A DNA stretch of 64,000 bases, from NCBI RefSeq assembly GCF_018977255.1, contig NW_024704742.1:96412001-96476000 (forward strand). Direction: 5' to 3'. Positions within the stretch are counted from its first letter, which is position 1. Each line of letters starts with the position of its first letter. The translations under genes and the position numbers were made by a program. Source of the DNA: Callorhinchus milii. Lineage: Eukaryota. The notes under the pieces are model-generated. The model saw only the letters and a program-made list of their open reading frames with translations. It was not told where the DNA came from and did no database searches. Shown in pieces: positions 11,136 through 63,555 of this stretch.

Positions 11136-11984
11136 AAGGGATTGTTGGCCGGGACACTGGAAAAAAATGTCTTCTCTTTTCAAACAGTCATATGGAATCT
11201 TTAATGTCCACCTGAACAGGCATTTACCTTTATAGGCATACAGAATAATGCAAAGTACAGTTCCCTATACTGAAAGAAAGTTAACAAGTGTTAAGTACCG
11301 TATGTGGTAGTACCTACACACCCACAGTTACCACAGAATATTACAGCACAGGAACAGGTCATTGGGCCCAACTAGTTTAGATATTTATATGTTTATACTC
11401 CAGATGAGCTCCACCTTTTCTAATCCCCTCTCCCATTCCGCACTATTCCCTTTTCCCTCATGTATTTATCTCCTTTTCAAACATCCCAATTGATTCTTTC
11501 TCTGAGGCCTTCTGTGTTGGTGCATTCCACATTTTCAGTTTACTCCAATAGCCATACTAGTATTCTACACCAGTTGGTGATTAATGTGCAATTTCCCCCT
11601 TTTTGTATAAATCAAGAATTGATAGCGCTGTCAAATTCAGATCCAATCCAAATCATAAGTAGAATGCTCACACTGTGACTTTTACTGACAGACATTGTCT
11701 ATTGCTCAGTTCTCACTCACTCCATCCCACTACTGGTAGTTGAGCCTTGAGCCACAACGTTACTCCCCACTGGAGCTCTCTTTCAAAATCTCTTTGCCTC
11801 ACTCTCTTTTTCCCTTCCTTCAAAACTCTATTTGAAATACTGTATATATTTTTGATCATGCTTTTGGTCAACATCTATCTCTGACTTCTCCCTCTCTATT
11901 CTAATGGTTAAGCATTTTGAGAAATTCATTCAATGTAAAGGGTGCTATATAAGTGCACTTATACTTATCTCTCAATTACGGAAA

Positions 11985-12516
11985 CCCCTCCTCATCGGTC
12001 TTCCCAACTCTTCCCTTCACAAGCTGCAGATCATCCAAAACTCTGCAGCTTGTGTACTCTCATCTACCAGGCTCCGTGACCCCATCACTCCCACCCGAGT
12101 CCACTAGCTCCCCATCCCTCAGATGATCGGGTTCAAGATCCTCATCCTCACTTTCAAGGCCATCCATGGCCTTGCCCTCTCCTACCTCTCTGAACTGCTG
12201 ACTCCCTACCAACCTGCCCGCTCCTTCCGTTCAGCAGGAGCTCTGCTCCATGTCTCCCGCCCGACCCTCCATACCATCGGTGGCCGGGTTTTCAGCCTCT
12301 CTGCCCCCGCACTCTGGAACTCCATCCCATGGTCCCTTTGTTTTGCTTCCTCCCTTGCTTCCTTCAAGGCTGGTCTCAAGACCCTTCTCTTCAATCGTGC
12401 CTTCCCTCACCCCTACCCTCCCCCATGCTCGGGCCCTGGCACCTGACTGTTCAGCGATTTGGGACGTCCTCCTGATGTGAAAGGCGCTCTATAAATGTAA
12501 TTTTGTTGTTGTTGTT
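11985..12516 (+). mobile_element. L2 LINE 3' end
   Basis: Same ORF2 C-terminus and tail as 63033-63555. Confidence 0.93.
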
Positions 12517-13954
12517 ATATAGCATTGTAGTGAAACCAATTTCAACTCAGTTCAGAAATGAGCAAAAGGACAATCTAGTTTAACTACAACAATTTTACCT
12601 TTCCCATTGGAGGATGTCTCAAAGTATCTCAGAACTGGATCAAAAAGCTTCAAAAAGCTTTGGCCTTCTCTTCCTATCATTCTGCCATGTTAACAGGGGA
12701 GACAAGAGCCTTTGGTGTTTATTTAATTTTTGTTGTACGCTCAGAGGAAAGCTCCTTCAAACTTCCCATGTAACAATTACAAATGGTTGTACATGATTAG
12801 ATAGATATTATTGTTGTGATATTGATATTGAGTTTACATGCACAAAATAAACTAGAAACCCTTGGGCTAGTTTCCATTCAGTGTAGGCTGTACACTGCAG
12901 TTTAGGTCATGATGTAAATCTACTTAAAAGATCCCTCTGGTGCATCCCATCAAATGGCTTTCTGAAAGAAAGAGCAGGCATACAAAAGACAGTCAATATC
13001 TATAAACAGAGTATGGTTTTGTTCATTGTTAGTTGCTCTCTGCCGTCTCAACAAATCCCTCTTATTTTTTTCAGTTTGGCGGAACTGATGTCTCTGGCTG
13101 AGACAAATGCATTGATTTTAGCAGAACAGTATTAGTGGCACACACTAAGCATTTTGTTGGCTTAACTCCCATCTCTAAACTTACTTCAGTGGACGACTGC
13201 TACACCCCTTAAATGCATCAATGCTCATTAAGCACTGCATCTAAAGGGCATAAGAGTGATCAGAATTGCATAGATGACCTGTATTGCTCAGCTGATTGTA
13301 GCATTATTGCTGCCAGCTTAGGAAGCTGTAGCTTCAGAACAGTATTACATAGACCAAGAAGCACAAGATTAAGGACCTGACAAAAGGGGTTGCCATTTGG
13401 ACCATGATCTTATCAAATATGGCAATAATTCTAAAGTATCTAGTACAACAGCCTGTTACCACCAGGCTGTTAAACTAGCAAAACATTTTGAGGCTGGAAA
13501 GCTCTCCCTGCAAAGATGAAATAAATAACATTAGGTAATCAGTATTGATCTAAGGAAACAATAGGTTAAGTAAGTATGGTGTTTTGTGGGATAAATTGGC
13601 ATTTAATATCCAAATGGCAGTAAGGGAAAGCCTGGCTCACTCACCGTCCATGTCCAATTGGCATAGAACTTTGGAAATATCCAATTTTTTATCTTTGATT
13701 TCTCAGGAACAAAGAGGTAAATTGATTAGGTCTTATTTTTAAGATGCAATTATTTTATGACCGAGTTTAGAAGGTCAAAATATTTGAATTTGTTTTGCTA
13801 AATGAGCTTTTGTCCGGATATAATTGATATAATTACTGTTCTTATGGTGCCTCAATTATATCACCAAGTATATTGGTGATATAATTGAGGTACCATAAGA
13901 ACAGTGATTGATTCTGTTCCAGCACATGAACATTCTCTGTCTGTAATAGTAATA

Positions 13955-14944: not shown

Positions 14945-15615
14945 ATGTCAACTTGCATTTATATAGTTTCCTCCACCCCGGGCGCATCCCAGAGCGCTTA
15001 ACAGTGCCAAGCCTGGGGAGGGGGAAGGTCACCATAGGCATAGTCAAAGAGAAAGGTCTTCAAGAGCAACCTGAAAATGGGGAAAGAGGGGGCAAGGTGA
15101 AGGGATTGAGGGAGGGAGTTCCATAGCTTCGGGGCGTAGTGGCTAAAGGCATGGCCACCGATGGTGGAGTGGAGGATTTGACAGACAAGAAGGAGGCTGG
15201 AGCCAGTAGAGTGGAGGCAGCGGGTAGTGCTGTGAGGAGAGAGGAGTTTGAAAGATAGGGTGGTGCCAAGGCATGGAGGGATTTAAACACTAGAGTGAGG
15301 ATCTTGAAGTTGGTTCGCTCAGGAAGCCAGTGGAGTTTGGCAAGGACTGGGATAATCCGGATGCAGAGTTTAGTGTGGGTGAGAATGTGGGTGGCTGAGT
15401 TTTGGATGAGTTGAATTTTGTGAGTAGTTGTGGAGAGTAGACTGGCGAAGAGGGCATTTGAGTAGTCCAGCCAAGGGGTGACAAAAGCATGGACAAAAGT
15501 TTCGGCACTTGTGGAGTGAGGTATTGGCGGAGATGGGCAATATAGCAGAGGTGGAGGAAAGCAGTCTTGGTCAGGGACCGGATGTGGGGAAGGAAGGATA
15601 ATTGGTGATCTACCA
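14945..15615 (-). mobile_element. L2 LINE 3' fragment (second subfamily)
   Basis: AETFVHAFVTPWLDYSNAL..QLIQNSA..LHWLP..FKILTLVFKSLHALAPPYLS. Confidence 0.93.
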
Positions 15616-16296
15616 ATGGGCATATGTCAGTCCAATTCATGGGATGTCTTAGATAGAGATATTGAATGGATACATACTCACATAATTCAACACTTCCACT
15701 TTGGAGTGAAATGTGAGACATTTCATATAGATTCAATGCCATGATTCTCACATCGAATCTGATATGAAACAATTGAATCTGGCAACAATAATAATCAGTT
15801 GATTTCAGATCTAAATGCTAAAACAGTTTAGAGCCAAAGGTTTGCGCCACTGAAGCCATTTGAAAAATGTTGTCAGCCAGGTCGGATTTGAGCAAACCAC
15901 TGAAATGGTTACAAGAAGAAAGACCTCCAGTTTGTCACTTACTGAAAGGACAAAGCGGCAGTGCTGGACAGGAAATAAATTTCGAAAATTCAAACCTTCA
16001 GGTTTCAGATATTGCTAATTCCAGCATTGTGGAAGAACGGCCTGTGCACGAGAGATCGCCCGGTGAGAATAGTAGTAGTGATTCAGAGCAAGAGTTTCTT
16101 TCCACTATCCTTTTGAGAGAAAGATGCAATTCTAAGACTTCAGAACATAAGCTGCACAAAAAAAAAAGGCAAAGCTAGAAAAACTGAAAGAAATGATCCA
16201 ATGGCAAAACATAAAGAAGAAGATCACACAGTTTGAAAAGTTACCGAACAATTGAAGAAATGCCAAATTAATAATGCTGAGGAACCAGATACTAGA

Positions 16297-16626
16297 TTAA
16301 TAATAATAATAATAATAATCCTTGCATTTGATATAGCGCTTTTCACGTCGGGAGGACGTCCCAAAGCGCTTCACAGAATACACTGTAAAGTGAATTAACT
16401 GTATATTTGTGGGCGAACGCGGCAGCCATTGCGCACAGCAATGTCCCACAAACAGTCGTAGATTGAAAATGACCAATTTATTATTGTTTTTGGTTTTGGA
16501 GGGATTATTATTAGGCTCTGTGTGGAGTAAGGAAACTTGCCCAAGGTTTCGCCCTCTGCCTGGAATTGAACTCAGGTCTCTCGCTTGCAAAGCGAGTGCT
16601 CTAACCACTGAGCTACAGGACTCCAC
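16297..16626 (-). mobile_element. tRNA-Ala-derived SINE, short form, full length, inserted in the RPAP2 retrocopy
   Basis: The reverse strand reads GTGGAGTCCTGTAGCTCAGTGGTTAGAGCACTCGCTTTGCAAGCGAG..GAGTTCAATTCC (A/B boxes, TGC anticodon loop), then the body, an L2-like 3' stem-loop and an (ATT)n tail. Confidence 0.95.
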
Positions 16627-17704
16627 AATTGAGACTGTCTCAAAGTACACAAAACAATTGAGATTGTCTCAAAGTACACAAAACACACAGTTGGCTTCTA
16701 AGCCAGAGGAATCTACACCTCCAATGTCTTCACAGAAAGTCATGGGAAAAGATCAAGCTACTGTTGTGCCTGGAAATTTTACTACGCAAGGTCTAAGCAA
16801 GAAGGGTGCTGCTTCACTGAAAATGCTGATAGCAAAATCAAAATATCCTAGTTCAGGAAGGCACACTTACAAGGTGGATCGATCTGTGAAAACTGATATA
16901 TTGGATTTGCTAAGACAAGCACTAACTGAATGGAATACAGAAGAAACATTAATATTTCTTTACGGTTCTAATTTCAAGTGCAAAACACTAGAATCGAACG
17001 AGTCAAGCCAAGTGACTTGTGTGAGTAAGCAAGAACTTGATGAAGATGACTTGGACAATCTAGAGGCAATTGAAATTGGAGATCCTAATCAGAATTCCAG
17101 AAATGATAATAGTTTGAGACAATGTCCTCCATCCCAAGGGTCAGCGACTAATGTTGGACCACTCCCAGATATGGAACGACTGAAGCCGGAATCTGAATGC
17201 CTTCACCTGAAAATCAGAGAATTTTATAAGGGGCGGTATGTTTTATCTGAAGACATTGATGGCAATACTGAAGAACATTTGGAATCCATAAATTATAAAC
17301 ACAGAAAAGAAAACCCGGTTCTTCCATTGGTGGATTCCAATGCCCAGCACCAGATCAGAAGACGATTTGTTGTGGAAAAACTTAAAAAAGCTTTACCTGA
17401 CATATTGGGGCCTCTTCGACTTACAATGTGTGACATTTCTCCTGAGCTAAACAGACTTGTAAAAACATTCAGGCTAACAAACACAAATATCCTTCACCGA
17501 CCCTCCCAATGGACCCTAATCGCTATTGTGCTGCTTGCAGTACTGTCAGTGAAGATTCCACTTCTTCAGGAGACTCTGCAGAGTGTGACCTCAGAAATGT
17601 TCATATCTACTTTTCTGCAAGAATTTGATGCCCAGATTGAAGACCTGGAAAATTTGAAGAACATCTTCAAATACCATGAGAAGAATGGTGTGGGGGGTCT
17701 GTAA
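16469..17704 (+). CDS. Hypothetical chimeric ORF (411 aa from the first ATG): antisense-SINE-derived N-terminus fused to the RPAP2 C-terminal 349 aa
   Basis: Open frame from ATG 16469 (A at -3) to TAA 17702-17704. No evidence of expression is available from the sequence. Confidence 0.2.
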   Translation: MTNLLLFLVLEGLLLGSVWSKETCPRFRPLPGIELRSLACKASALTTELQDSTIETVSKYTKQLRLSQSTQNTQLASKPEESTPPMSSQKVMGKDQATVVPGNFTTQGLSKKGAASLKMLIAKSKYPSSGRHTYKVDRSVKTDILDLLRQALTEWNTEETLIFLYGSNFKCKTLESNESSQVTCVSKQELDEDDLDNLEAIEIGDPNQNSRNDNSLRQCPPSQGSATNVGPLPDMERLKPESECLHLKIREFYKGRYVLSEDIDGNTEEHLESINYKHRKENPVLPLVDSNAQHQIRRRFVVEKLKKALPDILGPLRLTMCDISPELNRLVKTFRLTNTNILHRPSQWTLIAIVLLAVLSVKIPLLQETLQSVTSEMFISTFLQEFDAQIEDLENLKNIFKYHEKNGVGGL

Positions 17705-17737
17705 AACAAAAGTACAATTACATCTTGTAATTGAGTC

Positions 17738-18059
17738 GTGGAATCCTGTAGCTCAGTGGTTAGAGCACTCGCTTTGCAAGCGAGAGACCTGAGTTCAATT
17801 CCAGGCAGAGGGCGAAACCTTGGGCAAGTTTCCTTACTCCGCACGCCTAATAATATTTCCTCCAAAACCAAAAACAATAATAAATTGGTCATTTTCAATC
17901 TACGACTGTTTGTGGGACATTGCTGTACGCAATTGGCTGCTGCGTTCGCCCACAAATAGGCAGTCAATTCACTTTACAGTGTCTTCTGTGAAGCGCTTTG
18001 GGACATCCTCCCGACGTGAAAAGCGCTATATCAAATGCAAGGATTATTATTATTATTAT
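17738..18059 (+). mobile_element. tRNA-Ala-derived SINE, short form, full length
   Basis: Same head, body and tail as the 16297-16626 copy; starts 33 bp after the RPAP2 stop codon. Confidence 0.95.
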
Positions 18060-19448
18060 AAATGTACATTTTTCCAAACTTAGAGGCAGAAACTGCATTT
18101 ACAGGAGTCAAGCAGCTGTCTTATTTTTAATTGATGAACTCCGTTAGTAAAACTGAAAGTGTAAGTGTACAGAATTTTTATCAGGAATCATCAGGACTGC
18201 TGAGATCTTTGGGTCTCTGACTTCAGATCTAAAGAATAATACAGTGAGCTTCATCAACTAAAGATAGGAAAGCGGATTAACTCAGTGGGTGTGCACTATC
18301 TTATATGAATAAGAAGAATTTTACTCATCACAAGCCTAAAATTCCTTCCCCTCCTGCCACCATCCCTGTAACTTCAGCACAATGTTAGAATCAGAGAGAA
18401 ACCTGATTTAAAAATCTTATTTCTGGACTTCTGAGCGCCGTTTCAACATTTCAGTGCCACATATCAGGAAACCAAACTGAACAAATATCAAATTCTTTGT
18501 AATACGCTTTACTGGCGATCTGCCTTGATAACAGGAGGTCATCAGAAGCTATCCCAATCCAAGATGGTATCTGAGGGAGCTGGGGCCCTCAGGAGCAGAA
18601 TGACAAGAGGACTTGATTGATAGGTCAGTTATCACCAGCCTAAATATAAAGAATGAAATTTGCAGTGTTCCTAAATGTATTCCTTGTGTTATTATAGCCA
18701 CAAACATTATCCCACTTATTCATGATAAAACTCCAATTTCTCTCCTTTTTTAGAATCCTATAATATTGTACCATAATGTTACAGCACAGGAACAAGCTAC
18801 TCAGTCAAACATCTCTACAATGGGGTTTTCTCCACATGGGTCATCTAATCTGATCCCACTCTCCTGCTTGCTTCCCATACCCATCATGTTTCCTGCTCTT
18901 CAAGCATCTGTTTAATTCCCTTTTAAAAGGATTAATGAATTGACTCTTGCATTCTTGCTTTTCCAACTACAGATTGCAGACTGACAATCCGCATTTCATG
19001 CTTCTGCCAATGGGCATCAGCGATTAGCTCTGCCCTCTGACAGCTACAAACTGAATAGATGAAATCTTCTTTAATGTTCTTCCAAGAATTTGGGCTTCTG
19101 ATGAACTAATCAGGCTAAACATCTTCAAAATAAAACTGCTCAAAAGATTTTTGATCAATTGATATAAACAATTCAAAAATAAATGTTTCTTTTGCTACCA
19201 CATGTACTCCCAATTGCAGCAGTGTAAAGCTAGCCACATGGTATGAAAGTTGGTGTTAGGATGTGCTTTGCATATCCATTATATACAGTACATTTATTTT
19301 TGCAAACTATTAGAATGCAAAGTGTATACTAGGTGGTATCTATCGATCTGGGCCTCTCTGAGTGTCAGATAAATGAATGCTGGCACTTGTATCACCAACG
19401 TTGCTTATCCTAGACTCACACTGGCACCTCAGTTACAGGAGGTATTTA

Positions 19449-19665
19449 TATAATAATAATAATAATAATCCTTGCATTTGATATAGCGCTTTTCACGTCG
19501 GGAGGACGTCCCAAAGCGCTTCACAGAATAGACTGTAAAGTGAATTGACTGTATATTTGTGGGCGAACGCGGCAGCCAATTGCGCACAGCAATGTCCCAC
19601 AAACAGTCGTAGATTGAAAATGACCAATTTATTATTGTTTTATTTTGGAGGGATTATTATTAGAC
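19449..19665 (-). mobile_element. 5'-truncated copy of the tRNA-Ala SINE with a 9-bp target-site duplication
   Basis: 3' two-thirds of the SINE, flanked by AGGTATTTA at 19440-19448 and 19666-19674. Confidence 0.9.
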
Positions 19666-20704
19666 AGGTATTTAACTTCCACAACTATTGAATTAATACT
19701 GAAGACAAAAGTATGGTGCCAGAGTTGAGTGAATAATCAGGTTGCATCTCAACATACATGGTATATCTCAAGAAAAATAGTCTAAAAGGTTCAGTCAGCA
19801 CAGTTAATATGGATTGACTGCTAGAAAAATTGAGTCAAGATTTTTCTGACTGTCCAATTTCAGGGGGGCATTTGTCAATGAATAGAGGGTGAGGAGAGGA
19901 AATAAATTAAAGTCTAAGTGATCCAAATGCTAGCCATAGTGTCATGAAAATATTTGACAGGGTTAAAATTTATAACTGAAGCAGACTTGAGAAAAATGTA
20001 AACACATTTTCATTTCGGTGATAGCAGGCTCCGGAATGCCCAAAGTATTTACTAACAATTCTCACATTCCTGTTCCTCTATCAGTTTGTGCTTTTGAGGA
20101 TTTTTGACAGTATCCAGAAAAATGAAAACACTGTGAGCGCTTGTTATTGCAAACTGGTGAGGAATGGTCAATATAGCTCTTATCAGGGGTGGGCTTTATC
20201 AGCACTACGGCTCCTCTCTTCTCTAACCTACAATGATGCTTCAGCCAGAACTATAAGGTGCGTTTGTCATATCAAGGCTTTGTGGTAATAGGATTGACTG
20301 TAAAGAGGCTGAACTCTGCTTGGATCTTTAAAGCATTTTACATTTCAAACTAGTCTGGAGTAAATAACAGGATTGAAAAGCATCTCATTTATTGGTGGGA
20401 ATTTTCAACTTTAATATGTAAACCCGCATACCCCTGTTCAAATGTGGTTTATCCTAATGTTCTGTGTCTCTAGAACATAGTTTGGATTGTTTTATTGCAT
20501 AATTTTATGCTTCTTATTTTGGTGTGGGTGCTTTGAAGAGATAGAACATTTGTGACAGTCAGTAGACAGAGTAAAGCTATGTTTCACCACAAAGATTACC
20601 GCTTTGCAGTAATTACTATCAATCCCATTTCTATCAATTGGAAGAATGTGAGCTGGGTGAGAGGATCAAGTTAACTCATTCATACCACCACTGAGACCCA
20701 GAAA

Positions 20705-21045
20705 ACTAATCCTTGCATTTTTTGATATAGTGCCTTATCACATCACAGACATCTCAAAGCACTTCATGGAAGATATTGTAAAGTGAATTGACTGTATTTT
20801 GTGGCAGGCAATTGCATACAGCAATGTCCCGGAAGCTATGGATTGAGTGAACAATTTTTTTTGGCGGGGATTACTCATGGAAAGCAATCTGTCAATTAAC
20901 TAACAGAGGGATCCTACTTACTGCTTGATAAAAAGAGGGAAGTGGAATAAGGAAACTTGCCTAAGGTTTTGCCCTACCCGAGAATCAAACCCAGGTCCTC
21001 TCACTTGCAAGGTGAGTGCGCTAACTACTATGCTTCGGGATTCCA
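20705..21045 (-). mobile_element. Diverged long-form tRNA-Ala SINE
   Basis: Degenerate head, internal segment and tail, recognisable against the other copies. Confidence 0.85.
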
Positions 21046-21429
21046 AAATATTTTTGGGTACACTGAGACAGCTGAAGTAGGTTTAGAGTTAGAAAGAGCA
21101 ATTTCAAGACATATACCAAAAAAAATTATTTACACAGAGGATATTAAGAACTAGAACAAATTACTGGGAAGGGTGGTTGAGGCCAGGACACTGAACTCAA
21201 TTAAAAAACACCTTGGTGCTGTAATAAGAAGACATTAGGTTGGATATTCTGGAAGACTCGATCCAAATGGACCTTCTTTACTGGATCTTGTGAACTTGTG
21301 AACTCAGTCCAGAAGGGACTAAATCTACTATTTCTTAATAAATTGAATGTAATAATTACGACCTGTGATATCACTCTTTTATCTCCATTGCAGATCGATC
21401 CACAGAAGTACTGATTACTAGGATGAAAC

Positions 21430-21872
21430 CAGGCTGATAGGTGATATTATCAGATAGACTGGATAGGTTAGGCCTTTTCTCGCTAGAGAACAGATATTTA
21501 AGAGGGGACCAAATAGAGGTGTTTAAAATTATGAAAAAGCTTGATAAGATTAGCATAAGTAGGCAGTTCCCAATTGTTGGGGACTCTGTAATTAAGGGAC
21601 ACAAGTATAAGATAGCGCCTAGGGGATCTAAAAGAGAATTTAGGAGGAACTACTTCATAAGAAGGGTAGTGAGAATGCTTAAAGCAGCAGTTGTAACAGA
21701 TAGAAAATATATATTAAGAGATAACTAGATGCACATTGATGTAAAAGGTATGGAAGGATATGAGAGGGAGAAGGTGTAAATATACTCATGGGAGTACAAA
21801 CACAGGCACAGACTGGTTGGGCCAAATGACCTATTTCCATGCTGTACAGTCTATGTAAATCTATGTAAATGT
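21430..21872 (+). mobile_element. CR1-clade LINE 3' end
   Basis: LDRLGLFSLENRYLRGDQIEVFKIMK..GHKYKI..RRNYF; 3' UTR GGGCCAAATGACCTATTTCCATGCTGT; (TCTATGTAAA)2 tail. Confidence 0.9.
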
Positions 21873-22677
21873 GATGCTCTCCTTTACTACATGTATGCTA
21901 ATGATTCAGTGGAAGCATCCTGGTGACATAATGGACTGCAAAGAACCTTGGCTCTGAGGCTGGGCATTGAGATAGGCTTGTACTCTTTATAATAGACATA
22001 CAGCAAAAAATGTGCCAGGGAACTCAAATAGGTCTTAGTTGGAAATAAAAGATTCTTTTTCTTCCTTCGATGAAACTGGATGCAAAAACTGTGGTCAAAG
22101 TTTCCCGAGAGGAAGAAGACTAAAGGGAAATAAAGGATATCAGAGTTCATTAAACCAATATGACAACCATAAGAAATAATCAAAACTGGTGTCAATGCCA
22201 TCAGGAAAGGTGGTGTAATAAAAGCCTTTCTGCTAGCAGTAATGTTGTAGGGTAACATACATTGCAGATAATAGCCTCAGGACGCAAGACACTGAAAACT
22301 TTCATTCTTCAATTGCATTGCCAACTATTTTCAGCATGAGATTTGTTTTCTCCCAATCGCTGTTTTGCTGTTGGGAAATGTAACTATTTGTTGCCAGGAG
22401 TAACTGGGCTGTTTTACTGCCCATATACAGGGCTCCCAACTCTTCTGCATGAATCAGCAACATGGGGATCACATCTCTGCCCTGTACAGACCTTACCACT
22501 TGAATGGGAAAACAACAACAACAACTTGGATTTATATCGGACAGCGTCTCAGAGCGCTTCACAATAACGGATCCCGGGGCCGAGCCAGGGGGAGGTGCAA
22601 AATGCCCAGTCAGAACAAAAAGACACCTTTACCAGTTTCCCAACGGGGTGCTTTCAGCACTTATTTCTTTGTTAGGA

Positions 22678-22795
22678 AAATAATAATAATAATAATCCTT
22701 GCATTTGATATAGCGCTTTTCACTTCGGGGGGACGTCCCAAAGCGCTTCACAGAACACACTGTAAAGTGAATTGATTGTATATTTGTGGGCGAAA
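22678..22795 (-). mobile_element. 3' fragment of the tRNA-Ala SINE
   Basis: (TAA)n-TCCTTGCATTTGATATAGCGCTTTTCAC..GGACGTCCCAAAGCGCTTCACAG. Confidence 0.9.
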
Positions 22796-24205
22796 TAGAA
22801 ATAGGAGGAGGATATTCAACAAATGCAACCAGTTTTGCTTGTTATCACAATGTGACAGATCTTTTAATGCCATTTTCTGCCTTTTCTCCAATCCTCCTTA
22901 ATACTCTTCATTGTTGTGCACAATTCGGCTGCTGGGCTTGCCTACAAATACACAGTCACTTCATTTCACAGTAAATTCTGTGATGCGCTTTGGGATGTCC
23001 TCTCACATGAAAGGCATTACACCAAATGCAAGGATTATTATTGTTACCCTTTACTTCCTAAGTATCCCTCGTCCCCTTTCCTCTTAGCTTGGCGTCCAAA
23101 CTCACAACTGTGAAGCGCTCTGAAACATTATTCAATGTGAAGGGTGCTGTATAAATGCAAGCTATTGTTCCCAAGTATCTCACACTCTCTCTTTTAAATA
23201 GCCCAGCTGATTCGGCCTCTATGAACTTGTGTGGCAAAGTATTCCACAGCTATCACAAACATTCATTTGAATAAATATGTTCTGATCTTATATCTAAATT
23301 TAAGCTCAAATTTTAAGATTTCATTGTTACCAATGTTGTGGAATCTGCTCTATAGTTAAAATGGTTGAAGCAACTCCATAATAGAAACCTAGATTGGGTT
23401 TGTGTTGATCAAAGAATTAAGCCACAGATTCACCTTAGTGAGATGACAGTCAGTTCCACAGTCCATGCTTCATATGGTGAGTCTGGCATTACTTCCAGCT
23501 CAACAAGAAACCTTGACCTCAGGCAGAGGCAGATCCATTAAGAATCACTTTGTCAGCACATCAAACTTATCTGGTTTGAACTTCAGATTCTTTACTTTCA
23601 ATGAAATGTCAAGAGAAATCAATCCTGTAATCTAGCTGCTCAGTCTGAAATGTCAACTGTCACTGTCACTCTTGTTGGTGCCCAGCTAGAGCGGGATATG
23701 GGAAGATTTGGGAAACACCTGTGTACAATATCACACATAATAAAACCGGGGGTATAGCCAGAGAAATGCAGGCAGCTAGAGCAAGTTAGATCATCAGACT
23801 CTCTTTTGGAATGTACATGACAATTTTGAAAGGCAGGCTAATGGTGTCCAACAACACTAAAATTACTGAGAATAACAAATTTTCCATTCATTTGAAGCAC
23901 AGAATAAAGGTGTGTTGCAATACTGAACAGCACATGCTACACCTCACAATTGCATCCAGTCACCTGTTGATTGCAACATGTACTGTGCATTATTTTCTAG
24001 TATCAAGACACATTGCAAAATGTTGTCCACATTTTTCTCTTCCTGTTTGTGTCCTCATTTGTGAAAACTACTAGATATAAAACACAAGATAGCTAAGGTA
24101 TAGATAGCATCTTACCTTACTTACTCTGTCCAATGAGTTTTCTGCTTAAGGAAATTGGTTCTATGCCCCACTTATTCTGAACTGTTAGCATTGACTCAAT
24201 GCTCA

Positions 24206-24525
24206 GTGGAGTCCTGTAGCTCAGTGGTTAGAGCACTCGCTTTGCAAGCGAGAGACCTGAGTTCAATCCCAGGCAGGGCAAAACCTTGGGCAAGTTTCCT
24301 TACTCCACACACCTAATAATAATCCCTCCAAAACCAAAACCAATAATAAATTGGTCATTTTCAACCTACGACTGTTTGCGGGACATTGCTGTGCGCAATT
24401 GGCTGCCGCGTTCGCCCACAAATATACAGTCAATTCACTTTACAGTGTGTTCTGTGAAGCGCTTTGGGACGTCCTCCCGACGTGAAAAGCGCTATATCAA
24501 ATGCAAGGATTAGTATTATTATTAT
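24206..24525 (+). mobile_element. tRNA-Ala SINE, short form, full length
   Basis: Head, body, CTCCC-loop tail and (ATT)n. Confidence 0.95.
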
Positions 24526-25481
24526 GAAGTTTTCAGGTTTATTCAGCTCAAGTTTATATTTAGGGAGAACAATGTGATTTTGACTCAGGGTGGTCGATTC
24601 GGAATGGAATCAATGTTATCAGCTGCAAATGAACTGCAATAATGTTCTCTCTCTGCAACCTCTGCAGGTAATTACTCACTCTTTGTGCACTTTGTAATTA
24701 TTTAATTTTGTCTCTCTCAGTTTTAATATTCTTATTTAAAATTCTCTTTCCTACGACTCCAACTTACAGTGTTGCCCAGCACCTCCTAATCGACTCACAA
24801 TAGTGCTTGTCATGTTGAGGCATTCATCTCGTCAGCAGTGCCGACAATCCATGTTTAGATAATGATGCTTTTGAAAAGCATTTAACAAGACAGCAGGACT
24901 GTCTGAATATCATGACCTGGGCAATGAATCATTTTCTGATGCTTGAGGCATATATCACATCATTTTACTTTGGGGATTCTAGTATGACTCGAAGACTTCA
25001 AATATATTGAAAACATACTTCAAGTTATGTAACACCCGGTGCTATCAACACTGAATTATTATCACATATCTCTTTCCACTTCTTACAGAACAAATATGCA
25101 AATACCATGTAATTTGAAAGCTGACTTCTACTAACAAACAGCATAACTATTTAAGATGAGCTAAATTTTGGATACATGCAAGGCTCAAACTTAAACTTCC
25201 TAAAATTCTCATGATTTAGATCTGAACATTATTTAACAGATGCTGAAGTCAATAGTCCAGACCATTTTTGGAGCTTCAAATCTTGTCCTCTTATATCCTG
25301 GATAGACTTCCTGCAGATGACAATTTATCTGTATTTTTAACTGTAACTTCCTGTTTACAAATAAAAGTCATCAGGCAATATGACCGTTTGAGTGGTGGGT
25401 GGGGGAGGAACCTGGAGTTGGGTGCAGTTGATGTGTTAAATCCTTAGCCGAGCCCAACCTTGGTACCATCCAATATCTAAA

Positions 25482-25858
25482 AATAATAATGATAATCCTT
25501 GCATTTGATATAGCGCCTTATCACGTCTTCAAGGCATCTCAAAGCACTTCACAGAATATACTGTAAAGTAAATTGACTATATATTTTGTGGGCAAAACGC
25601 AGCAGCCAATTGCGCACTCCAGTGTCCCACAAACAGTTGTGGATTGAGTGGCCAAATTATTATTATATTTTTTTAAGGAATTATTACCCCCGGAAAAGTG
25701 ATCTGCCAATCGACTAACAATTGGGTTCCTACTTACTGCTAGATAAACAGAGGCGTGTGGAGTAAGGAAACTTACCCAATATTTCGTCCTGCCGGGATTC
25801 AAACCCAGGTCTCTCGTTTGCGAGGCGAGTGCTCTAACCACTGAGCTACAGGACTCCA
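25482..25858 (-). mobile_element. tRNA-Ala SINE, long form
   Basis: Carries the extra internal segment (CTGTTTATCTAGCAGTAAGTAGGAACCC..TTTTCCGGGGG); the anticodon loop reads CGC. Confidence 0.95.
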
Positions 25859-28513
25859 GAACTCCACCAATCTCAACTGTAAATTTTCTGTCAAGGATAG
25901 TGATCAGGAGCAAGAACATTGGTGAATTTGCATCTTCTACCTAACCCAGAGGGACTGAGGCAAATTGCAGCAGGTCTAATGCCCGTCGGACTGAGATCAT
26001 CAAATGCAGCACAGATAAACAATTGAAGCTACGACCCTCCTGCTTCAGTCAAGAGGGTATGGCACTGCTGAGCTGCTGCTATCACTTTGCCTCTCCAAAT
26101 CATTGCTCTGCACGCCACACCACTCTTTCTTTTCTTTTCTTGACAGGCACAAAAATTCCACAAAAGTTTTAAATTTAAACAACATTTTAACATTGATACA
26201 GCCCTTTTCACATCACGGGGATATCTCAAAGTGCTTCACAGAGTCGATTAGGAGCATGAGAAGGGGGTAGGGAAACTGAGGAAAGTGTGTGTGGGGTTGG
26301 GGGGGAAGAATTTTGTTCAAAAGTGTAGTCAAAAAAATACTCTGGGGAAAATTCTCATTCACACATCACCAAATAAATTGCATTTACATTGTATTTTGCA
26401 GGGAAATCTCAAGGTGCAACACATTAATATTGCCTGTTATAGCCCCAACAGCAACAATTTGTCATGCTTACCTCATACCTCTATGGACTGAGATAATGCG
26501 GTGCTTCGGTTGCTCTCAGCTCTCTTGGTCTATGGGAGGAGGGAAATAAATCAGCCAGCACTGCTGTTCATCATCATCATTCAATTGTCTTTGCTTCCAA
26601 GTGACCATTTCTGGGTGGATTTGGGGAAAAGGAAAATTATCAGACTTTGCTGCAATATAACCTATTTCCGAAAAGCTTAACCCCTCTCACTGAGTTTACA
26701 CATGATGAGGAGCCACACCAATCGATGTCCCGGCTGGCAACCCGAGCTGGAGGGACCGACTGGCATTTCAACGTAAAACCGTGCCTCTCCAATATATGGG
26801 AAGAAACCGCTTGCCGGTGTCTTCACGTGGAGCCCAGCTACACCTCAGCAGTCAGCCCCACTGATGTCTGAGCAATGAGAAACCACCCTCACCTAATTTA
26901 TCAGAAGGCCAGTCAGGAGGCTGCAGATGTGAAAGATTTTTTTAAATCAAAATAAACCATTCGTTATCATTTAGTTCAGTGACCAGCATATTAACCTGCT
27001 CCTTGCAACCAGAGCCTCACTTCAAAGGGGTCAAGTTTCATATGAGATTAAGGTGAGAATAAAGGTATTTATCAGCAGGAAAATAGAGTAACTATCAATC
27101 CAAAATAAAATATCAGATTCTTAATAGCATTTTAATATATTCATTGGGGCTGGTAGCTTTTTATCAACCGTTGAATATTGCTGGAAAACTGAACACAAGC
27201 ATAAACTGAAAGTTTACGTTAAAAGCAGGTTTTGTTGCTGCCCTTACTATTAGAGCACTTAGGATGCAACACAAGAAATATTATCAATAAATTGCAAGGA
27301 GCAAGTCCATAATAGATTCATTTGAATTTTACATGATCTTCGTTTTCATAAGATTTACGCAGAGGGATTTAAGGGATTGGTAGTTAACTGAATGATTTAG
27401 ATAACAATTATAACAATTCACATATATATTATCACTTATTAACGCACTTTTGTTCTGCAGCAATTTAAATTAGGTTCCCCCCTCCCACCACCCAGTACAA
27501 AATTATTGGATGTAAAATTATTCACTATGTGCATCATCCTGATTATTCGTATGCTTAACATAGACTAAATGCTGTTCACATAAGCTTTTTTTTCTATCCA
27601 GCTCCCAGGGGTTTCCAAACACCAAAAATCAACAAGGTCGATTTTGTGTAGTTTCTTAATTAACTTCTTAATTAATAAATCCATTAAGATTCTTACGATC
27701 CATTTCTTAATTAAGATCACTGGAAATCCTTGACGTTGACTCTCGGGAATGTTACACCTACTCTATCCTCACGTTACAATTACCAGGAGCTCCCATCAGG
27801 ATTCCTTAATTAACAAATCCATTAAGAAATACCTCAAAATTCACTCCACCTATTTACACAGAATTACATAGAACATGACAGCATGGAAACAGGCTGTTCA
27901 GGCCAACTAGTTTATGACAATGTTTATACTCCATTAGGGACCTAACGCCTCCTAATCCCCTCTTCATACCTCTCTATTTTCCTATATTTAAATAGCAATG
28001 TTACAGGAATACAATAACGTTTGTTGATTTCCTGCCTCTGGTTGAACGTGGTCAGTTGATTTAAAATTTAGGCTTATCAAGTTGTTTGCTTCTTCCAGCA
28101 AGTTGTGCTCACCTCACCAGTCCTATTCAATAAAGTGCTCCACAGTGATTGGCCAAGTTCTGATAAAGTTCCCTACCTACTGAAAGGTTAACCTATTTGA
28201 CTTAAGATTTTTGACACATTGTGTCATGGGATAAGTAACATCCGTCTGAACAGGCAGATGGGACTTGGGTTTAGCATCTCCACTGAGAAACAGATCCTCT
28301 GCCAATGCAATACTTGCCCAATATCAACTTAAGATACTTTTTTGGCCATTACACACTGAATCCCTGAAACTCTTTGCCTCATTCTTTCAATTTTGCCCCC
28401 TCTTTGCCCTTCTTCAAATCACACCTGAAAAATTTTCTCCTCGGCATCAAGCTATTCCATTGTTAGTTTATCTGTGATGCTATCTGCATGAAGGGCGCTA
28501 TATAAATCCAAGT

Positions 28514-28582
28514 TATAGTATAGTATACATATAGTATATATAGTTTATATAGTATATATATAGTATATATAGTATAGTATAT
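28514..28582. repeat. (TATAG/TATATAG)n low-complexity microsatellite
   Basis: Direct inspection. Confidence 0.9.
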
Positions 28583-28642
28583 CCATCTCTCTCTCACACT
28601 CATTCCATCCCCTGACCCTCCCCACCACGTCTCTCTCCATCT

Positions 28643-28965
28643 GTGGAGTCCTGTAGCTCAGTGGTTAGAGCACTTGCTTTGCAAGCGAGACACCTGGGTT
28701 CAATTCCAGGCAGGGCGAAACCTTGGGCAAGTTTCCTTACTCCACACACCTAATAATAAACCCTCCAAAACAAAAACAATAATAAATTGGTCATTTTCAA
28801 TTCACGACTGTTTGTGGGACATTGCTGTGTGCACTTGGCTGCCGCATTTCGCCCACAAATATACAGTCAATTCACTTTACAGCACATTCTGTGAAGCGCT
28901 TTGAGATGTCAAGAAGACGTGAAAAGCTCTATATCAAATGCAAGGATTATTATTACTATTATTAT
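28643..28965 (+). mobile_element. tRNA-Ala SINE, short form
   Basis: Full head and body; tail loop AAGAA. Confidence 0.95.
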
Positions 28966-29696
28966 AGTACATAGGTAGTTCGGACATATGTGCACGCAAC
29001 CGCTAGGAAGGTGAAAGGCGAATTCAATGGACCTTGGACCTTGGTCTTGTTTTCGTCCAGCATTTCTTATGTTCTTAAGTTGATGTTGCTGTTGTTAAGA
29101 CTACAAGACAACATCCCAACTTGGGGCTTGAACCCATAATCTTTAAACTAGAGATAAGAGTGCAGCAAATTGACCTATGATTATAATTGTGAGAAATGCC
29201 TGTGCTTTGAGCTTTCTCTTTACAAGAAATGCCTATTTTTCAGATGGATTCTGCTGGGGGATAGGACATCAATGTTACAGGTAGTGCTGCTTGTCAGGGT
29301 CTATCTAAGTTAGATTGATTAATTTACTGTACACTCCCGGGGTATTTATCCCAGTCACAGACCAGAGAGAATCCAAGAAAACCATTTGCCCAGCAGTCGA
29401 TTTGCACTGAGAAATGCACACACAGTCCAGCTCAATTTCAGGTGCAGGTATCAGAATAAAATAATATTAAAAGTAATTATATAATAGCCTGCATTGAAAC
29501 ACATGAATCCTCACAAGATGGACAGCACAATATTTACTGTTGTTGATGTTGAATAGTCATTATAGCTAAGCCAGTAGTAGAAGTCTTATAGCAGGAGCCC
29601 TGACCTTCCTAAATATCATTACACAGTCATCAGAATTTCCCTATAATGCACTTCTAAGATTTTTTTGCAGAATGACCTCACAATTATCCCTTTAAT

Positions 29697-30000
29697 CATA
29701 ATAATAATCCTTGCATTTGATAGAGCGTTTTTCATATCTCAAAGCGCTTCACAGAATATGCTGTAAAGTGAATTGACTGTATATTTGTGGGCGAAATGCG
29801 GCAGCCAATTGCGCACAGCAGTGTCCCACAAACAGTCGTGGATTGAAAATGACCAATTTATTATTGTTTTTGTTTTGGAGGGATTATTATTAGGCGTGTG
29901 GAGTAAGGAAACTTGCCCAAGGTTTTGCCCTGCCTGGAATTGAACCCAGGTGTCTCGCTTGCAAGGCGAGTGCTCTAACCACTGAGCTACAGGACTTCAC
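29697..30000 (-). mobile_element. tRNA-Ala SINE, short form, inner tail hairpin deleted
   Basis: Full head and body; the tail lacks the ACGTC-loop-GACGT segment. Confidence 0.93.
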
Positions 30001-32189
30001 TTTAACAGCTGTCCCTGCAAATTCTAGTTGTCAAAAGCTTATTGCCTCCAAATCCCCTGCACCCTCCATATATGCCATCTGTATACATTGATATTTTGAT
30101 ATTCTCACTCCTTGGGGTGGGGGTAAATAGGGTTTCCTTTGAGGATGAGTTAGCTTGGGCTTCAAGGTATCCTGCCTGGCAAGGGAATAATGGAATTGAG
30201 TGTCAATATTCTGTGGAGGTCTCAGTACTAGTAAATCTTGTGTTTGATACACGCCCATAACGTCCGAAAGCATTTCAAGATTTATCTGAAATGTAGTGAC
30301 TGTGTATTTTGTAGCCAAATACAGGAGCTAATTTGCATACAGCAATGACCCACAAACAGCATGAAATGACTGACCAATTTTATCTGGAGGATTGTTGCCC
30401 AGGACGCAGGGAAAATTTCCCTTCTCCTCTCGAGCATGCTAACAATTGAAATAGGCTGGCACCTTGTGCAATCTGATGCCTGATGCAGACAGGTCCATAG
30501 TATTCCAAGCAATATTGATGACAAACCAACTTGCTTCATTCATCAGCAGGATTTGGAGGAGCAGATCCCACTCAACTCCTGTTAATTCTGTAAGCCAAAG
30601 TCCTAACAGGTAAGATAGTCTTACTTGGCCAAGCAGCAAGAAGATGTCCAATCACTGTTTTCTTTGGAAAGCTGTATGGTTTATATTGGTTAAACTCCAG
30701 CAGTAACTCAATATATTACAGGGTAGTATTTAGAAGATATGTGCATTCTCTTGAAACATCGAGAGGGAGAAATTCCACACAGATTTATTCTAATTATGTA
30801 GCATTTCTGAATTCTTAAATATAGCCGTAATTTTCATGATGGTTTTCTGTAGGTTCTTCCAAGATCTACAGAAAACCATCTTGAATGTTGAGATGGAATT
30901 TAACAATTTGGCAAACTCTAGGTGCTCCAGACATCGACATAAAAATCTAAACCCTTGCAATCTATTAACTTAAAAGTCCTGTTGTGGGGGTTGAACCCAC
31001 AACCTTTTGACTCAGAGGCAAGTGTGCTCCCAACTGGGCCAGGCTGGCTGGCACTTTACATATTTCTCCCCAAGTCACAGATCTGGCCACCAGCAGAAGT
31101 CAGTCCTTATTGAGAAGAAAGTGAAGCCCAGGTTTTCAAATCATGTAAATAAATCATCTTTTTATTGTTTAATTTGGACAGCAAATCCATTTTGAACTCC
31201 TGTGCTTGTAATATTCCTGCAACCTTTCAGAATAAAATCATCCAATATTTATGTTTTAAAAGCGTTTGTTGCACAGAGCCATTCTTTTGCTGTAAACCAG
31301 CTCTTAATATCCAGCTTTTTCATTTCATACTTGCATAATGAGCCTTATTATGTGAAAATGATTAAAGCAACACATTAAAAGCAGTAGAGATGGGGATATA
31401 TCAGAAACTAGATAGTGTCTTCATCTTCACCTCCTCAGTCTCTCAGTGTAATATGTCTCCCATTACCCATTGCTCAATGACACACTGAATGTGCTCTCAG
31501 AGGGAGCTCCACCAAATAGCTCAAGTAAAGGTTTAAAGATCCTCCCAGCTCAAAGCAGTATTATCTTTTGAAGCCATGTGGATTATGTTACTCCAACCTG
31601 ACACTTCTCAACACATTCAACATCACTTATTCATGAAAAAATCACTGTTCCATTCCAGGCCCCAGACACTTTCACGTGCTCCACAACATCGCTTTTATTT
31701 GCATTAACAATAAAACTTATTAGAGGAGAATTGCAGTACATTGATTTGAATATCATACCAGTAACTGTCTCACACACCACAAGGAAGACTCAGGGTGATT
31801 GCATAAGGTAGTTAAAGTAAATGCAACAGTATAAGAAGGCCAATGCCATGAAAATGAAAGTAATCATAAATAACACAAAGTGGGTAGGAGATTTTTTGTT
31901 AATACTGGGTGGGTGGGGAGCAGAAAATGTTCATTCCCAAACATTCAGGAAGTCCGAAATGTTCAAAGTTTACAGAAAACATGCTACTGTTATGCCCTTC
32001 ATGTATGTTTCAACCTACTGACTTCACATGGGGATAAAATATTCTGACAACAAACTGAATAAAAAGTCTTTGTGGTCGTTGACCACAATTTGGAAGTGAG
32101 TTTAAATTTGCTGCCAACTTTATATAGCCCAATGTGAAAAACTACAGAAATATCTTCAGAACAATTTTACAATCATAACAATTCACTTC

Positions 32190-32480: not shown

Positions 32481-33104
32481 ATAAAGCATCCCTCATAAGG
32501 GTTAGTGTCTCAAAGCATTGAACAATGGCAAAGTTTGATGCTGAGCTGAGGAGAAAGAGGAGGTGACTGTGGCACATAGCCACAAACAGCCATGAAGGGA
32601 ATGAACAATTGAATAACCAAAATAACAGAAGAAAATTGATTTTTATTTCAAAAAAGAGACTACATTTAGGAATCTGAAAAGAAAGCATACCTTTATAAAA
32701 GAGGAAGTAAAATGCAAACCACACTGCTGAATATAGAGAACAAAGACAGGATGAACTTGAAGCAGAAATCATTAAAAAAAAGCGAAAGGCAGAGAAGGCA
32801 GGAATTCTTATAAAAATCAGTTGTTGGCAAGTAAAATGACTATTTAAAGGCCAATTGAAAGAGGAGCAAGACGGATTCAAGGAAACAATGAATGCCGCGG
32901 GTGGAGATTTGAAGGCCAGATAGATGTAGATTGAATTGCTATAAGTGAAATTAGAAAATGGCCAGAGTTTCATGAACATTTTACATAATTTTTCATAAAT
33001 TATCACAGTGAACAAAAAGAAGCTAAAGTTTATGGGATACTTTGGATACAAGTTTACAGAATCATAGAAATTTACAACACGAAAGGAGGCCATTCGGCCC
33101 ATTA

Positions 33105-33552
33105 ATAACATCAACAATTTGAATTTATATAGTGCCCTCCACAGCGGGCGGCGTCTCAGAGCGCTTAACAATGGTGGAGACTGAAGCTGAGCTGGGGGAA
33201 GGGGAAGGGGACCGTGGGCGCGGTTGAAAAGGAAGGTCTTCAGGTGCAACCTGAAGATGGGGAAGAAGGGGGCAAGGTGAAGGGGTTGAAGGAGGGAGTT
33301 CCCAAGTTTTGGGGCATAGTGGCTGAAGGCACAGCCACCAATGGTGGAGCGGAGGATTCGGCGGACATGGAGGAGGCCGGGCCCAGTAGAGCAGAGGCAG
33401 CGGGTACTGCTGTGGGGAGAGAGGAGGTCAGAGAGATAGGGGGATGCCGAGGAAATGGAAGGTTTAAACACTAGAGTGAGGATCTTGAAGTTGATCCGCA
33501 CTGTGACAGGGAAGCAGTGGAGTTTGGCAAGGACTGGAGTAATTGGGGTATG
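33105..33552 (-). mobile_element. L2 LINE 3' fragment, same subfamily as 14945-15615
   Basis: RINFKILTLVFK..YLSDLL..TIGGCAFSHYAP..LKTFLFNRA and tail. Confidence 0.92.
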
Positions 33553-62269: not shown

Positions 62270-62965
62270 CAGTTAAATGATAGTTTGGTCTAAAGCATGA
62301 TCTTGAACTGTATCCTCTGAGTGATGGGAAGCCAGTGGATGGAGTCGGGTGAGGATGGGGATGATTGGGTCATGGAGCTTGGTGAGGGAAAGGACATGGG
62401 CTACAGAGTTCTGGATGATCTGCAGCCTATGGAGGGAGGAGTTGGGGAGGCCGTCAAGCAAGGACTTTGCCTAGTCAAGTCTTGATGTTATGAATGCACG
62501 TATGAGGGTTTCGGAGGCCTGCGGTGTGAGACAGTGCTGGAGCCGGGCAATGTTGCGGAAGTGGGGGAAGGCAGAGCAGGTCATTGTGCAGATGTGGGGT
62601 AGAAAAGATAGTTGAGGGTCAAACAAGATGCCAGTGTTCCAGACTGGCTTAGCAAGGTGGCGTGTGTGTCCTTGGCTGGTGATGCTGTCAGCACCTGAGG
62701 TGAGGAGGCGCTGATGGGAGCCAATCAGGAGGGCCTCGGTCTTGCTGATACTCAACTGAAGAAAGTTAGCTCTCATCCAGGACTTGATGTCTGACAGACA
62801 TTTTGTCAGGACAGAGGTGGCCCTGGAGTCAAGGGTGGAGACAGAGAGCAAGAGTTGGGTGTCATCTGCATACATGTGGAAGTTGACCCCATGTCTGCGG
62901 ATGATGTCACCAAGAGGGAGCATATAGATATTGAAGAGGAGGGAAGCAAGGACAGAGCCCTGAAG
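62270..62965 (-). mobile_element. L2 LINE RT fragment
   Basis: [47 protein letters not shown]. Confidence 0.93.
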
Positions 62966-63032
62966 AACTCACTTAAACAATAATCTTAATTGAAATGGGA
63001 CAGTAGATAAGGAAAGGTCAATTACATTAATT

Positions 63033-63555
63033 CCAAAACTCTGCAGCTCGTGTGCTCTCATGCACCAGGCTCCGTGACCCCATCACTCCCACCTTCACCC
63101 GACTCCACTGGCTCCCCATGCCCCAGAGGATCGAGTTCAAGATCCTCGTCCTCACCTTTAAGGCCATCCATGGCCTTGTCCCCTCCTACCTCTCTGACCT
63201 GCTGGCTCCCTACCAACCTGCCCGCTCCCTCCGTTCAGCGGGCTCCGGTCTGCTCCATGTCTCCCCCCCGACTCGCCCTACCATCGGTTGCCGGGCTTTC
63301 AGCCTCTCTGCCCTCACACTTTGGAATTCCATCCCACGGTCCCTTCGCCTCGCTTCCTCCCTTGCTTCCTTCAAGGCCGGTCTCAAGACCCTTCTCTTCG
63401 ACCGTGCCTTTGGTCTCCCTCCCACCTCTCTGCCTTCTCTCACCCCTACACCACCCCTCCCCCATGCTCGGGCCCCAACAGCTGACTGATCAGCGCTTTG
63501 GGAAGTCCTCCCGACGTGAAAGCGTTCTATAAATGTAATTTTGTTGTTGTTGTTG
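63033..63555 (+). mobile_element. L2 LINE 3' end
   Basis: [37 protein letters not shown]; tail GTCCTCCCGACGTGAAAG..(GTT)n. Confidence 0.95.

Follow-up and report, generated by a model that had tools for sequence, protein, structure and literature searches.

It is well established that short interspersed elements (SINEs) are mobilized by long interspersed elements (LINEs) through a shared tail (PMC3747384, PMC1845163). In Callorhinchus milii, such a partnership was described for the CmiSINEs (SINE2-1_CM and SINE2B-1_CM) and L2-2_CM (Luchetti et al. 2017, PMC5499810). In this study, we analyzed a 64-kb stretch of the C. milii genome (contig NW_024704742.1, positions 96,412,001 to 96,476,000; the whole stretch is called the window, and coordinates count from its first base), in which a young, 5'-truncated, intronless pseudogene of RPAP2 lies at 15906-18059 (+) and ends at a SINE tail. 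The locus and the described system are alike in the tRNA-Ala head, the L2-shared tail and the very high copy number of the SINE, and they differ in the cargo, which here is a spliced RNA polymerase II mRNA upstream of the SINE.

Other described systems share parts of this picture. First, ZfL2-1 and ZfL2-2 recognize their tails stringently (Hayashi et al. 2014, PMC4176376); the hairpin and short 3' repeats are the same kind of tail as at the RPAP2 locus, and a LINE in the window keeps the tail-binding spacing, whereas the published assays used the LINE's own RNA and our case would concern a host mRNA carrying a tail. Second, L1-derived processed pseudogenes whose parents carry Alu or B1 in the 3' untranslated region (UTR) (Farre et al. 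2016, PMC5199112) are likewise intronless, 5'-truncated and present in several copies, with a SINE in the parental UTR, but they end in poly(A), have longer target-site duplications (TSDs) and show Alu only as a statistical enrichment, while in the RPAP2 copy the SINE tail takes the place of poly(A). Third, in the platypus snoRNA-RTE chimera (Schmitz et al. 2008, cited in PMC5499810) a host RNA also gained a LINE-type tail and multiplied; there the cargo is small and non-coding, the fusion arose by template switching and up to 40,000 copies exist, in contrast to a protein-coding gene, a genomic SINE insertion and probably about a dozen copies for RPAP2.

Stringent LINEs are considered to restrict hitchhiking RNAs, which is the standard reason given for the few retrocopies in CR1/L2 genomes (PMC5470649, PMC3136929). 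The CmiSINE study found a CmiSINE in 104 mRNAs and SacSINE1-CM in 34, always in the 3' UTR, and read these UTR SINEs as microRNA targets; retrocopies and pseudogenes do not figure in its text (PMC5499810). For cartilaginous fishes, a 2026 survey counted 14,081 retrocopies, MIPOL1, SUDS3, SDF2L1, SLU7 and ZNF276 being among the top parents, and credited CR1 or Tx1 content by correlation; the available portion of this preprint gives no sequence mechanism and mentions neither RPAP2 nor Callorhinchus (bioRxiv 10.64898/2026.06.26.734816). Our literature search, with thin coverage of subscription journals, found no prior report of mRNA retrocopies ending in a UTR-borne L2/CR1-type SINE tail, and the RPAP2 case probably extends the known trans-mobilization of SINEs by L2 to mRNA.

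The open frame at 16661-17704 (+) matched C. milii RPAP2 (protein P0001, 616 aa) at 99% identity over 100% of its 339-aa query, and the next species reached 54%. With tblastn, parent residues ~140-225 were placed at 15906-16163 and residues 225-271 at 16159-16299 in another frame (85/94 and 43/47 identities), so that an intronless coding sequence (CDS) for residues 140-271 occupies 15906-16298 (+); residues 270-616 followed at 16661-17701, also intronless, with a TAA stop at 17702-17704 and then exactly 33 nt of UTR at 17705-17737 (+). Residues 1-139 are missing from the copy, residues 1-131 gave no tblastn match above noise in the 64-kb window, and the Rtr1 domain (parent residues 64-135) is not represented there. 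The CDS is disabled in three ways: the frame shifts within the A-run 16158-16167, a TGA stands at 16234-16236, and the sequence is interrupted at 16299-16626 by an antisense SINE, which is followed by 34 extra nucleotides. Because of the frameshift and the TGA, the copy at 15906-18059 is dead as a gene.

The parent is the P0001 cluster, which has alternative isoforms, and its intron boundaries are marked by them: P0115 diverges after LLAV (residue 563), P0114 lacks 11 residues after WLQEE, and a shark isoform, P0012, lacks residues 541-563, a 23-aa exon corresponding to 17473-17541. The window is unbroken over the 11-residue stretch skipped in P0114 and at both ends of the 23-aa exon. Since the parent has introns and the window is unbroken at all of these points, the copy is processed. 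It thus shows the features expected of a processed pseudogene: parental introns are absent, a separate multi-exon expressed parent exists, and the copy is 5'-truncated and bears disabling changes. A reading made earlier from the letters of this DNA (hereafter the sequence-only reading) had described an intronless, 5'-truncated RPAP2 CDS followed by 33 nt of UTR and a sense SINE, and the protein matches, the tblastn placements and the coordinates of stop and UTR agree with it. Its span of 15888-18059 holds as a retrocopy; the start moves to 15906, where clean homology begins, and the CDS is not continuous, being interrupted by the frameshift, the TGA and the antisense SINE.

The copy ends in a full sense SINE of CmiSINE type at 17738-18059 (+), supported by blastn, alignment, Rfam and contigs from public runs. 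It opens with GTGG at 17738 (12 SINE heads were compared) and is colinear with five other near-full copies and one partial copy in the window. Rfam recognized a tRNA at 17746-17808 (RF00005, 43.5 bits, E 3.9e-8), and the anticodon TGC in the loop TTTGCAA indicates a tRNA-Ala-derived head. The segment 17812-17840 has what we take to be a CORE-like look. By head and tail, the element appears to fit the tRNA-Ala CmiSINEs with a tail like that of L2-2_CM. An AATAAA at 17879-17884 (+), colinear in other SINE copies, is the first canonical poly(A) signal downstream of the stop codon and was read through with no A tract. The LINE-shared tail at 17985-18059 (+), the putative priming site, was delimited by LINE-end alignment and folding and consists of a hairpin at 17992-18027, then AAATGCAAGG, then (ATT)5AT at 18043-18059. 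The last ~70 nt aligned with all four LINE 3' ends tried (near 43680, 63485, 12447 and 14950-15010). The copy thus ends in a tail shared with LINEs of putative L2 type, hairpin and short repeats included, though one hairpin pair is broken.

The 3' signs of L1-type retroposition were absent, since there is neither a 3' poly(A) nor a TSD of ~15 bp, only a 6-mer at the 3' end. No run of eight or more A was found between 16168 and 21117, and ten such runs exist in the whole window. The sequence-only reading had proposed a full sense SINE closing in an L2-type stem-loop and (ATT)n in place of poly(A), and had named a poly(A) tract with a TSD further downstream as the observation that would speak against it; the former stood, and the latter was not found. 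Its remark that no L1 is present in the 64 kb does not carry over to the whole genome.

Candidate partners of the SINE tail are present in the window as decayed, 5'-truncated LINEs that carry the SINE-shared tail, at 41590-43750, 62299-63558 and 11980-12521 on the plus strand and at 14949-15610 and 33103-33543 on the minus strand. The longest contains an RVT_1 domain (E 2.6e-16) and, at 41707, the spacing P-W-x15-E-x2-W, its sole match in six frames, which was described as the tail-binding arrangement of L2 (PMC4176376); another LINE lies ~250 bp upstream of the retrocopy. CmiSINE tails have been matched to L2-2_CM (PMC5499810), and membership of the tail-sharing LINE in the L2 clade would fit both its RVT_1 domain and its tail-binding spacing, that is, at the level of domain and motif.

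To carry the tail into a retrocopy, the parental transcript would need to contain the SINE. We aligned contigs of public runs to 16690-19440, using 4 of 24 runs: X1 and X2, which are of DNA size, and X3 and X8, which are RNA-like and come from two studies. In both RNA-like runs a single contig spans 16690-17765, passing the same UTR/SINE junction and stopping 28 nt inside the SINE head (X3 record 17: 2017 nt, 7 other letters, 0 gaps; X8 record 25: 1913 nt, 8 other letters, 0 gaps). The 33-nt UTR is gap-free in these two contigs and in DNA records 6, 7 and 14. The RNA-like contigs reach 941 nt (X3) and 837 nt (X8) further upstream, where the CDS requires 836, and thus cover the full CDS with P0001 letters, among them those at 16767 (A305), 17100 (K416) and 17366 (I505). 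P0112 is another RPAP2 model, and its changes at 17412 and 17589 are marked in neither contig. Because the P0001 letters are present and the P0112 changes unmarked, these contigs represent the parent transcript, which carries the SINE head 33 nt past its stop. We reasoned that the break 28 nt into the SINE is expected, since a 31-mer graph there enters a repeat of some 300,000 copies (PMC5499810). The sequence-only reading had predicted a parental SINE 33 nt after the stop, and this was confirmed for its head; a parental 3' UTR lacking the SINE, which would have contradicted it, was not found.

The antisense SINE within the CDS (16299-16626, minus strand) provided an internal control, because the parent protein, which reads D-T-R-L-S through the site, fixes the pre-insertion sequence. 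It belongs to the same subfamily as the terminal SINE (95.4% identity), is younger, and was inserted after the copy had formed. AGATT stands on both sides (16294-16298 and 16661-16665), and its junction consists of this 5-bp TSD and 34 flank-templated extra bases at 16627-16660 (+), where Tandem Repeats Finder reported a period of 29 in 2.1 copies at 16625-16685. Published L2 inserts of zebrafish are bordered by TSDs of 5 bp and carry extra 5' bases taken from the flank (PMC4245944, PMC2666801), a style which the junction appears to match. Thus, later SINE insertion into the copy is a real possibility, and since 42 other SINE or tail matches were also found by blastn in the 64 kb, the order of events at the 3' end needed testing.

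Two lines of comparison bear on that order. Across 309 aligned columns, the terminal SINE carries 10 substitutions, spread from 17743 to 18005, that are unshared with the other six window copies. Between the X3 contig and the CDS with its UTR, 6 of 1048 positions differ, a seventh difference being assigned to 17743 by inference. This is a ~5-fold excess in the SINE (Fisher p=7e-4). In contrast, the antisense SINE, which is necessarily later than the copy, has one unshared substitution (p=0.011) and two unshared indels. The terminal SINE therefore aged before copying, along its whole length, and is older than the RPAP2 copy.

The idea that the copy is an ordinary one whose UTR later received a SINE, the weakest of the alternatives, was largely refuted: such an insertion did happen at 16299-16626 and SINE density is high, but the same UTR/SINE junction is found in parent-type RNA contigs and in a DNA record at depth 95, the flank is at single depth, and the divergence of the terminal SINE exceeds that of the copy.

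Contig depth pointed to further copies. The flank at 18038-19440 formed one contig in X1 (depth 7.8) and in X2 (depth 9.0), whereas per-record depth across the copy rose from 5' to 3' (23, 32.9, 96.8, 97.6, 90.3 and 95.2 in X1; 49.3, 42.6, 54.8, 97.4, 114.7 and 122.6 in X2), that is, from ~3 to 12 and from ~5 to 14 times flank depth, respectively. Record 7 of X1 (17698-17761, depth 95) holds the stop, the UTR and 24 SINE bases in one piece. Records 4 and 12 (depth 97) span the exon junction 17472/17473; record ends at 17444 (a start) and 17497 (an end) are where an intron-bearing parent would fork. This depth pattern indicates that the extra copies are spliced and 3'-biased and do not share the flank, matching 5'-truncated retrocopies, and there are probably roughly a dozen such 3'-anchored copies of RPAP2. 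The earlier expectation that homology would stop at about 18059 was borne out as a stop inside the SINE or at its end, the flank standing at 7.8 and 9.0 against 90-123 at the UTR/SINE junction. In X3 and X8, depth was 0 over 18070-18621 while the DNA runs continued; cover there is poor, and this was at most a weak hint and was not counted. The depth of the 5' CDS relative to the flank differs between the runs (~3 in X1, ~5 in X2), which may reflect copies polymorphic between individuals or graph simplification. The sequence-only reading had gone as far as neither the multi-copy family nor the antisense SINE.

Annotated proteins agree that RPAP2 sequences exist beyond the parent cluster. P0112 lies on another contig (81 vs 69 Mb), P0116 and P0119 bear substitutions of their own, and N295 of P0116 was seen in X2 as 16738 A>C at depth 11.7. 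P0112 and P0116 are full-length second RPAP2 models that keep the Rtr1 region; they may be one locus in two assemblies, or possibly an intact retrogene. P0117 (UniRef A0A4W3I327, 501 aa) was not counted as a sibling: it has the 5' junction and the antisense SINE of the window locus, with several residues differing, and is probably this same locus in another assembly. The P0117 model seems to be built on the pseudogene: its splicing bypasses the frameshift, it takes in SINE sequence, and it is likely an annotation artefact. Short annotated 3' RPAP2 fragments were absent at E 1e-40 among 523 candidates. Caution is thus needed with C. milii gene annotations, which include retrocopy-derived RPAP2 models. 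Furthermore, P289, V305 and R416 are common to the window and P0116 and missing from four parent-cluster proteins, with S289 and A305 as the shark states, and T16767 and G17353 occur at 2-5 flank-depths. E405 is common to X8 RNA and P0119, from which it follows that parental alleles were sampled. The shared variants are explained equally well by an old parental allele that was copied repeatedly or by a copy acting as source.

Taken together, these results make it likely that an L2 reverse transcriptase was primed on the SINE tail within a read-through RPAP2 mRNA. In this scenario, a CmiSINE-type SINE would have inserted in sense orientation 33 nt past the stop of the multi-exon RPAP2 gene, and the parent would hold it complete. 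Spliced transcripts reading past the internal AATAAA would then carry the L2-shared hairpin and repeat tail; L2 ORF2 protein (ORF2p) would bind the tail in trans and prime on (AUU)n at a genomic nick, and reverse transcription would proceed through SINE, UTR and CDS to halt near codon 140. Repeated events would yield roughly a dozen copies with a common 3' end at the same tail and differing 5' extent, of which the window copy would later have acquired its frameshift, stop and second SINE. Binding and copying of RPAP2-SINE RNA by ORF2p is accordingly a prediction of the scenario. The sequence-only reading had suggested an embedded SINE as a route for L2 to mobilize RPAP2 mRNA; the SINE head in the parent, the age order and the flank depth support this route, with L2 as the presumed enzyme.

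Several points weigh against this reading. The RNA nature of X3 and X8 is a guess, as no run is recorded as RNA. The SINE letters at the junction number 28 in the RNA contigs and 24 in DNA record 7, and the shorter side of records 4 and 12 amounts to 29 and 25 letters, respectively; all of these fall below the 31-letter bridging rule. The interior of the SINE is flooded, with ~60,000 contigs per DNA run; its 119,174 pieces, with a further 702 loose ends and 90 joints, are uninterpretable, some differences went uncounted, and parent and siblings cannot be traced to the tail. Contig depth is a rough proxy and not a copy number. The depth without the A at 17841 was 27.7 in X8, where the mRNA contig stood at 85.8, and 139 in X3, where it stood at 47; this may reflect partial read-through or a parental A at this site. 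As for the age comparison, "private" SINE changes were set against only six window copies and some may be subfamily marks, and if SINE sequence evolved three times faster the excess would stand at p=0.044. The tail itself is imperfect: the repeat is ATT in the SINE and GTT in the LINE tails, one inner pair of the hairpin is lost to a G>A at 18005, and the terminal hairpin folds with a z-score of -0.63, 53 of 200 shuffles folding as well (the antisense SINE has -1.8, one LINE tail -1.9, and two older LINE tails -0.35 and +0.35). Lastly, no TSD was established for the RPAP2 copy.

Among the alternatives, the one that survives best is a template switch, in which L2 began on a free SINE RNA and jumped to the RPAP2 mRNA via the shared SINE, so that the mRNA might end at the internal AATAAA; it still depends on both SINE and L2, and the mRNA would not itself be the primer template. 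That the link to the parent transcript covers only the first 28 bases of the SINE, that an AATAAA exists at 17879 and that depth without the A at 17841 is low in X8 would all suit such an origin, and chimeras by switching are an accepted origin of SINE modules (PMC5499810). However, 6 of the 10 unshared substitutions (17927-18005) lie 3' of the AATAAA, whereas RNA from an active master would be expected to stay close to consensus, like the antisense copy; the SINE alignment shows no seam, and each of about a dozen copies would require a switch of its own. We therefore consider a template switch improbable, chiefly because of the differences past the internal AATAAA.

A relaxed enzyme of L1 or Tx1 type, priming on a since-lost poly(A) or on the A/U-rich repeat and carrying the SINE as mere cargo, would also produce a spliced copy. 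LINE1 has been reported in all vertebrate lineages (PMC4350176), which also counts against our preferred reading, retrocopy number tracks L1 in non-mammalian chordates (PMC3136929), and Alu in 3' UTRs is enriched among parents of L1 retrocopies (PMC5199112). At this locus, however, no run of eight A occurs within 3 kb downstream even though the copy is only ~0.6% diverged, the copy ends exactly at the L2-type repeat, and AUU repeats are not A-rich. L1 TSDs are ~15 bp long (PMC4245944), and exact matches of the 5' flank within 17700-32000 reach at most 11 bp, in one that lies 6 kb off. Such an enzyme is thus very unlikely. The same slim chance is all that we allow to a cDNA or RNA-templated repair product recombined with a resident SINE, by which the tail would belong to the locus and not to the mRNA. 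The density of SINEs, with the 42 other blastn matches in 64 kb, the unclear TSD and the greater age of the terminal SINE relative to the CDS speak for it, but it requires rare events to be repeated, the SINE is seamless, and the 5' junction has an L2-like flank-repeat look (weak, p=0.038).

This junction is less sharply defined than the 3' end. Clean RPAP2 homology begins at 15906 (TGG, W140), and 15891-15902 codes for S-K-P-L, a loose likeness to the parental S-K-S-P-L, so by protein comparison the 5' boundary of the copy probably falls between 15891 and 15906. Back-translation fails beyond ~4 codons, and 15871-15905 (+) was annotated as a junction zone of flank or extra nucleotides. Here CCACTGAA at 15897 repeats a copy at 15847, 50 nt upstream (p=0.038 for a chance local 8-mer repeat, a weak signal), which would fit an annealing-type join. 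AAATGT at 15865-15870 (+) and at 18060-18065 (+), where the single-depth flank begins (contig 18038-19440), had been offered as a weak candidate TSD. A match of at least 6 was reached by 11.7% of 20,000 random 60-nt windows (P=0.117), the hexamer occurs 55 times on the plus strand of the window, and its left copy is 35 nt upstream of the clean junction; it is not above chance and was dropped as evidence. An L2-style junction has a short TSD, a blunt join or a target truncation, often with 5' extra bases, and this 6-bp candidate with 35 unassigned nt would fit such a style, at P=0.117. As far as 32000 no longer direct repeat turned up, the 11-bp exact match standing at 24017, ~6 kb away.

If L2 priming on the SINE tail is correct, the locus provides a concrete retrocopy route in L1-poor genomes, and it predicts that parents whose 3' UTR holds a SINE tail in sense have many copies ending at that tail. 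The 138 published UTR-SINE mRNAs (PMC5499810) make this prediction directly testable. More tentatively, and at slightly less than even odds, we suggest that a SINE or LINE tail lying in sense within a 3' UTR may be a general licence making an mRNA a substrate for a stringent LINE, in the elephant shark and probably in other L2/CR1-dominated genomes. In that case retrocopy number would depend on which genes bear such a tail and not on how strongly they are expressed, and this could account for the abundance of retrocopies and the unusual top parents in cartilaginous fishes. In the boldest form of this suggestion, some RPAP2-SINE copies would themselves be sources, giving a nascent mRNA-derived retroposon family.

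Further observations concern the SINEs around the copy. The antisense and terminal SINEs form a head-to-head inverted pair 1.1 kb apart and have in common a 2-bp insertion, GGCAGAGGG, that is missing from the other four full copies aligned. The bases adjoining both heads (16627-16635 and 17729-17737) read AATTGAG.C on the plus strand (AATTGAGAC and AATTGAGTC), by chance or through a target preference. In addition, a 5'-truncated young SINE tail lies inverted at 19442-19663 (-), 1.4 kb downstream of the retrocopy and 94% identical to the terminal SINE.

Pfam was run on 113 of the 142 stop-to-stop frames of at least 75 aa, 29 being excluded for overlap with SINE, LINE, RPAP2 or low-complexity sequence and, in one case, for an N. 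It returned one RVT_1 and one sub-threshold match, and thus neither a host gene nor a second retrocopy in these frames, from which short exons would escape. Where the nearby long frames have no Pfam match, a purine-rich stretch at 32740-32820 (+), around an A-run at 32774-32781, resembles a short coding exon.

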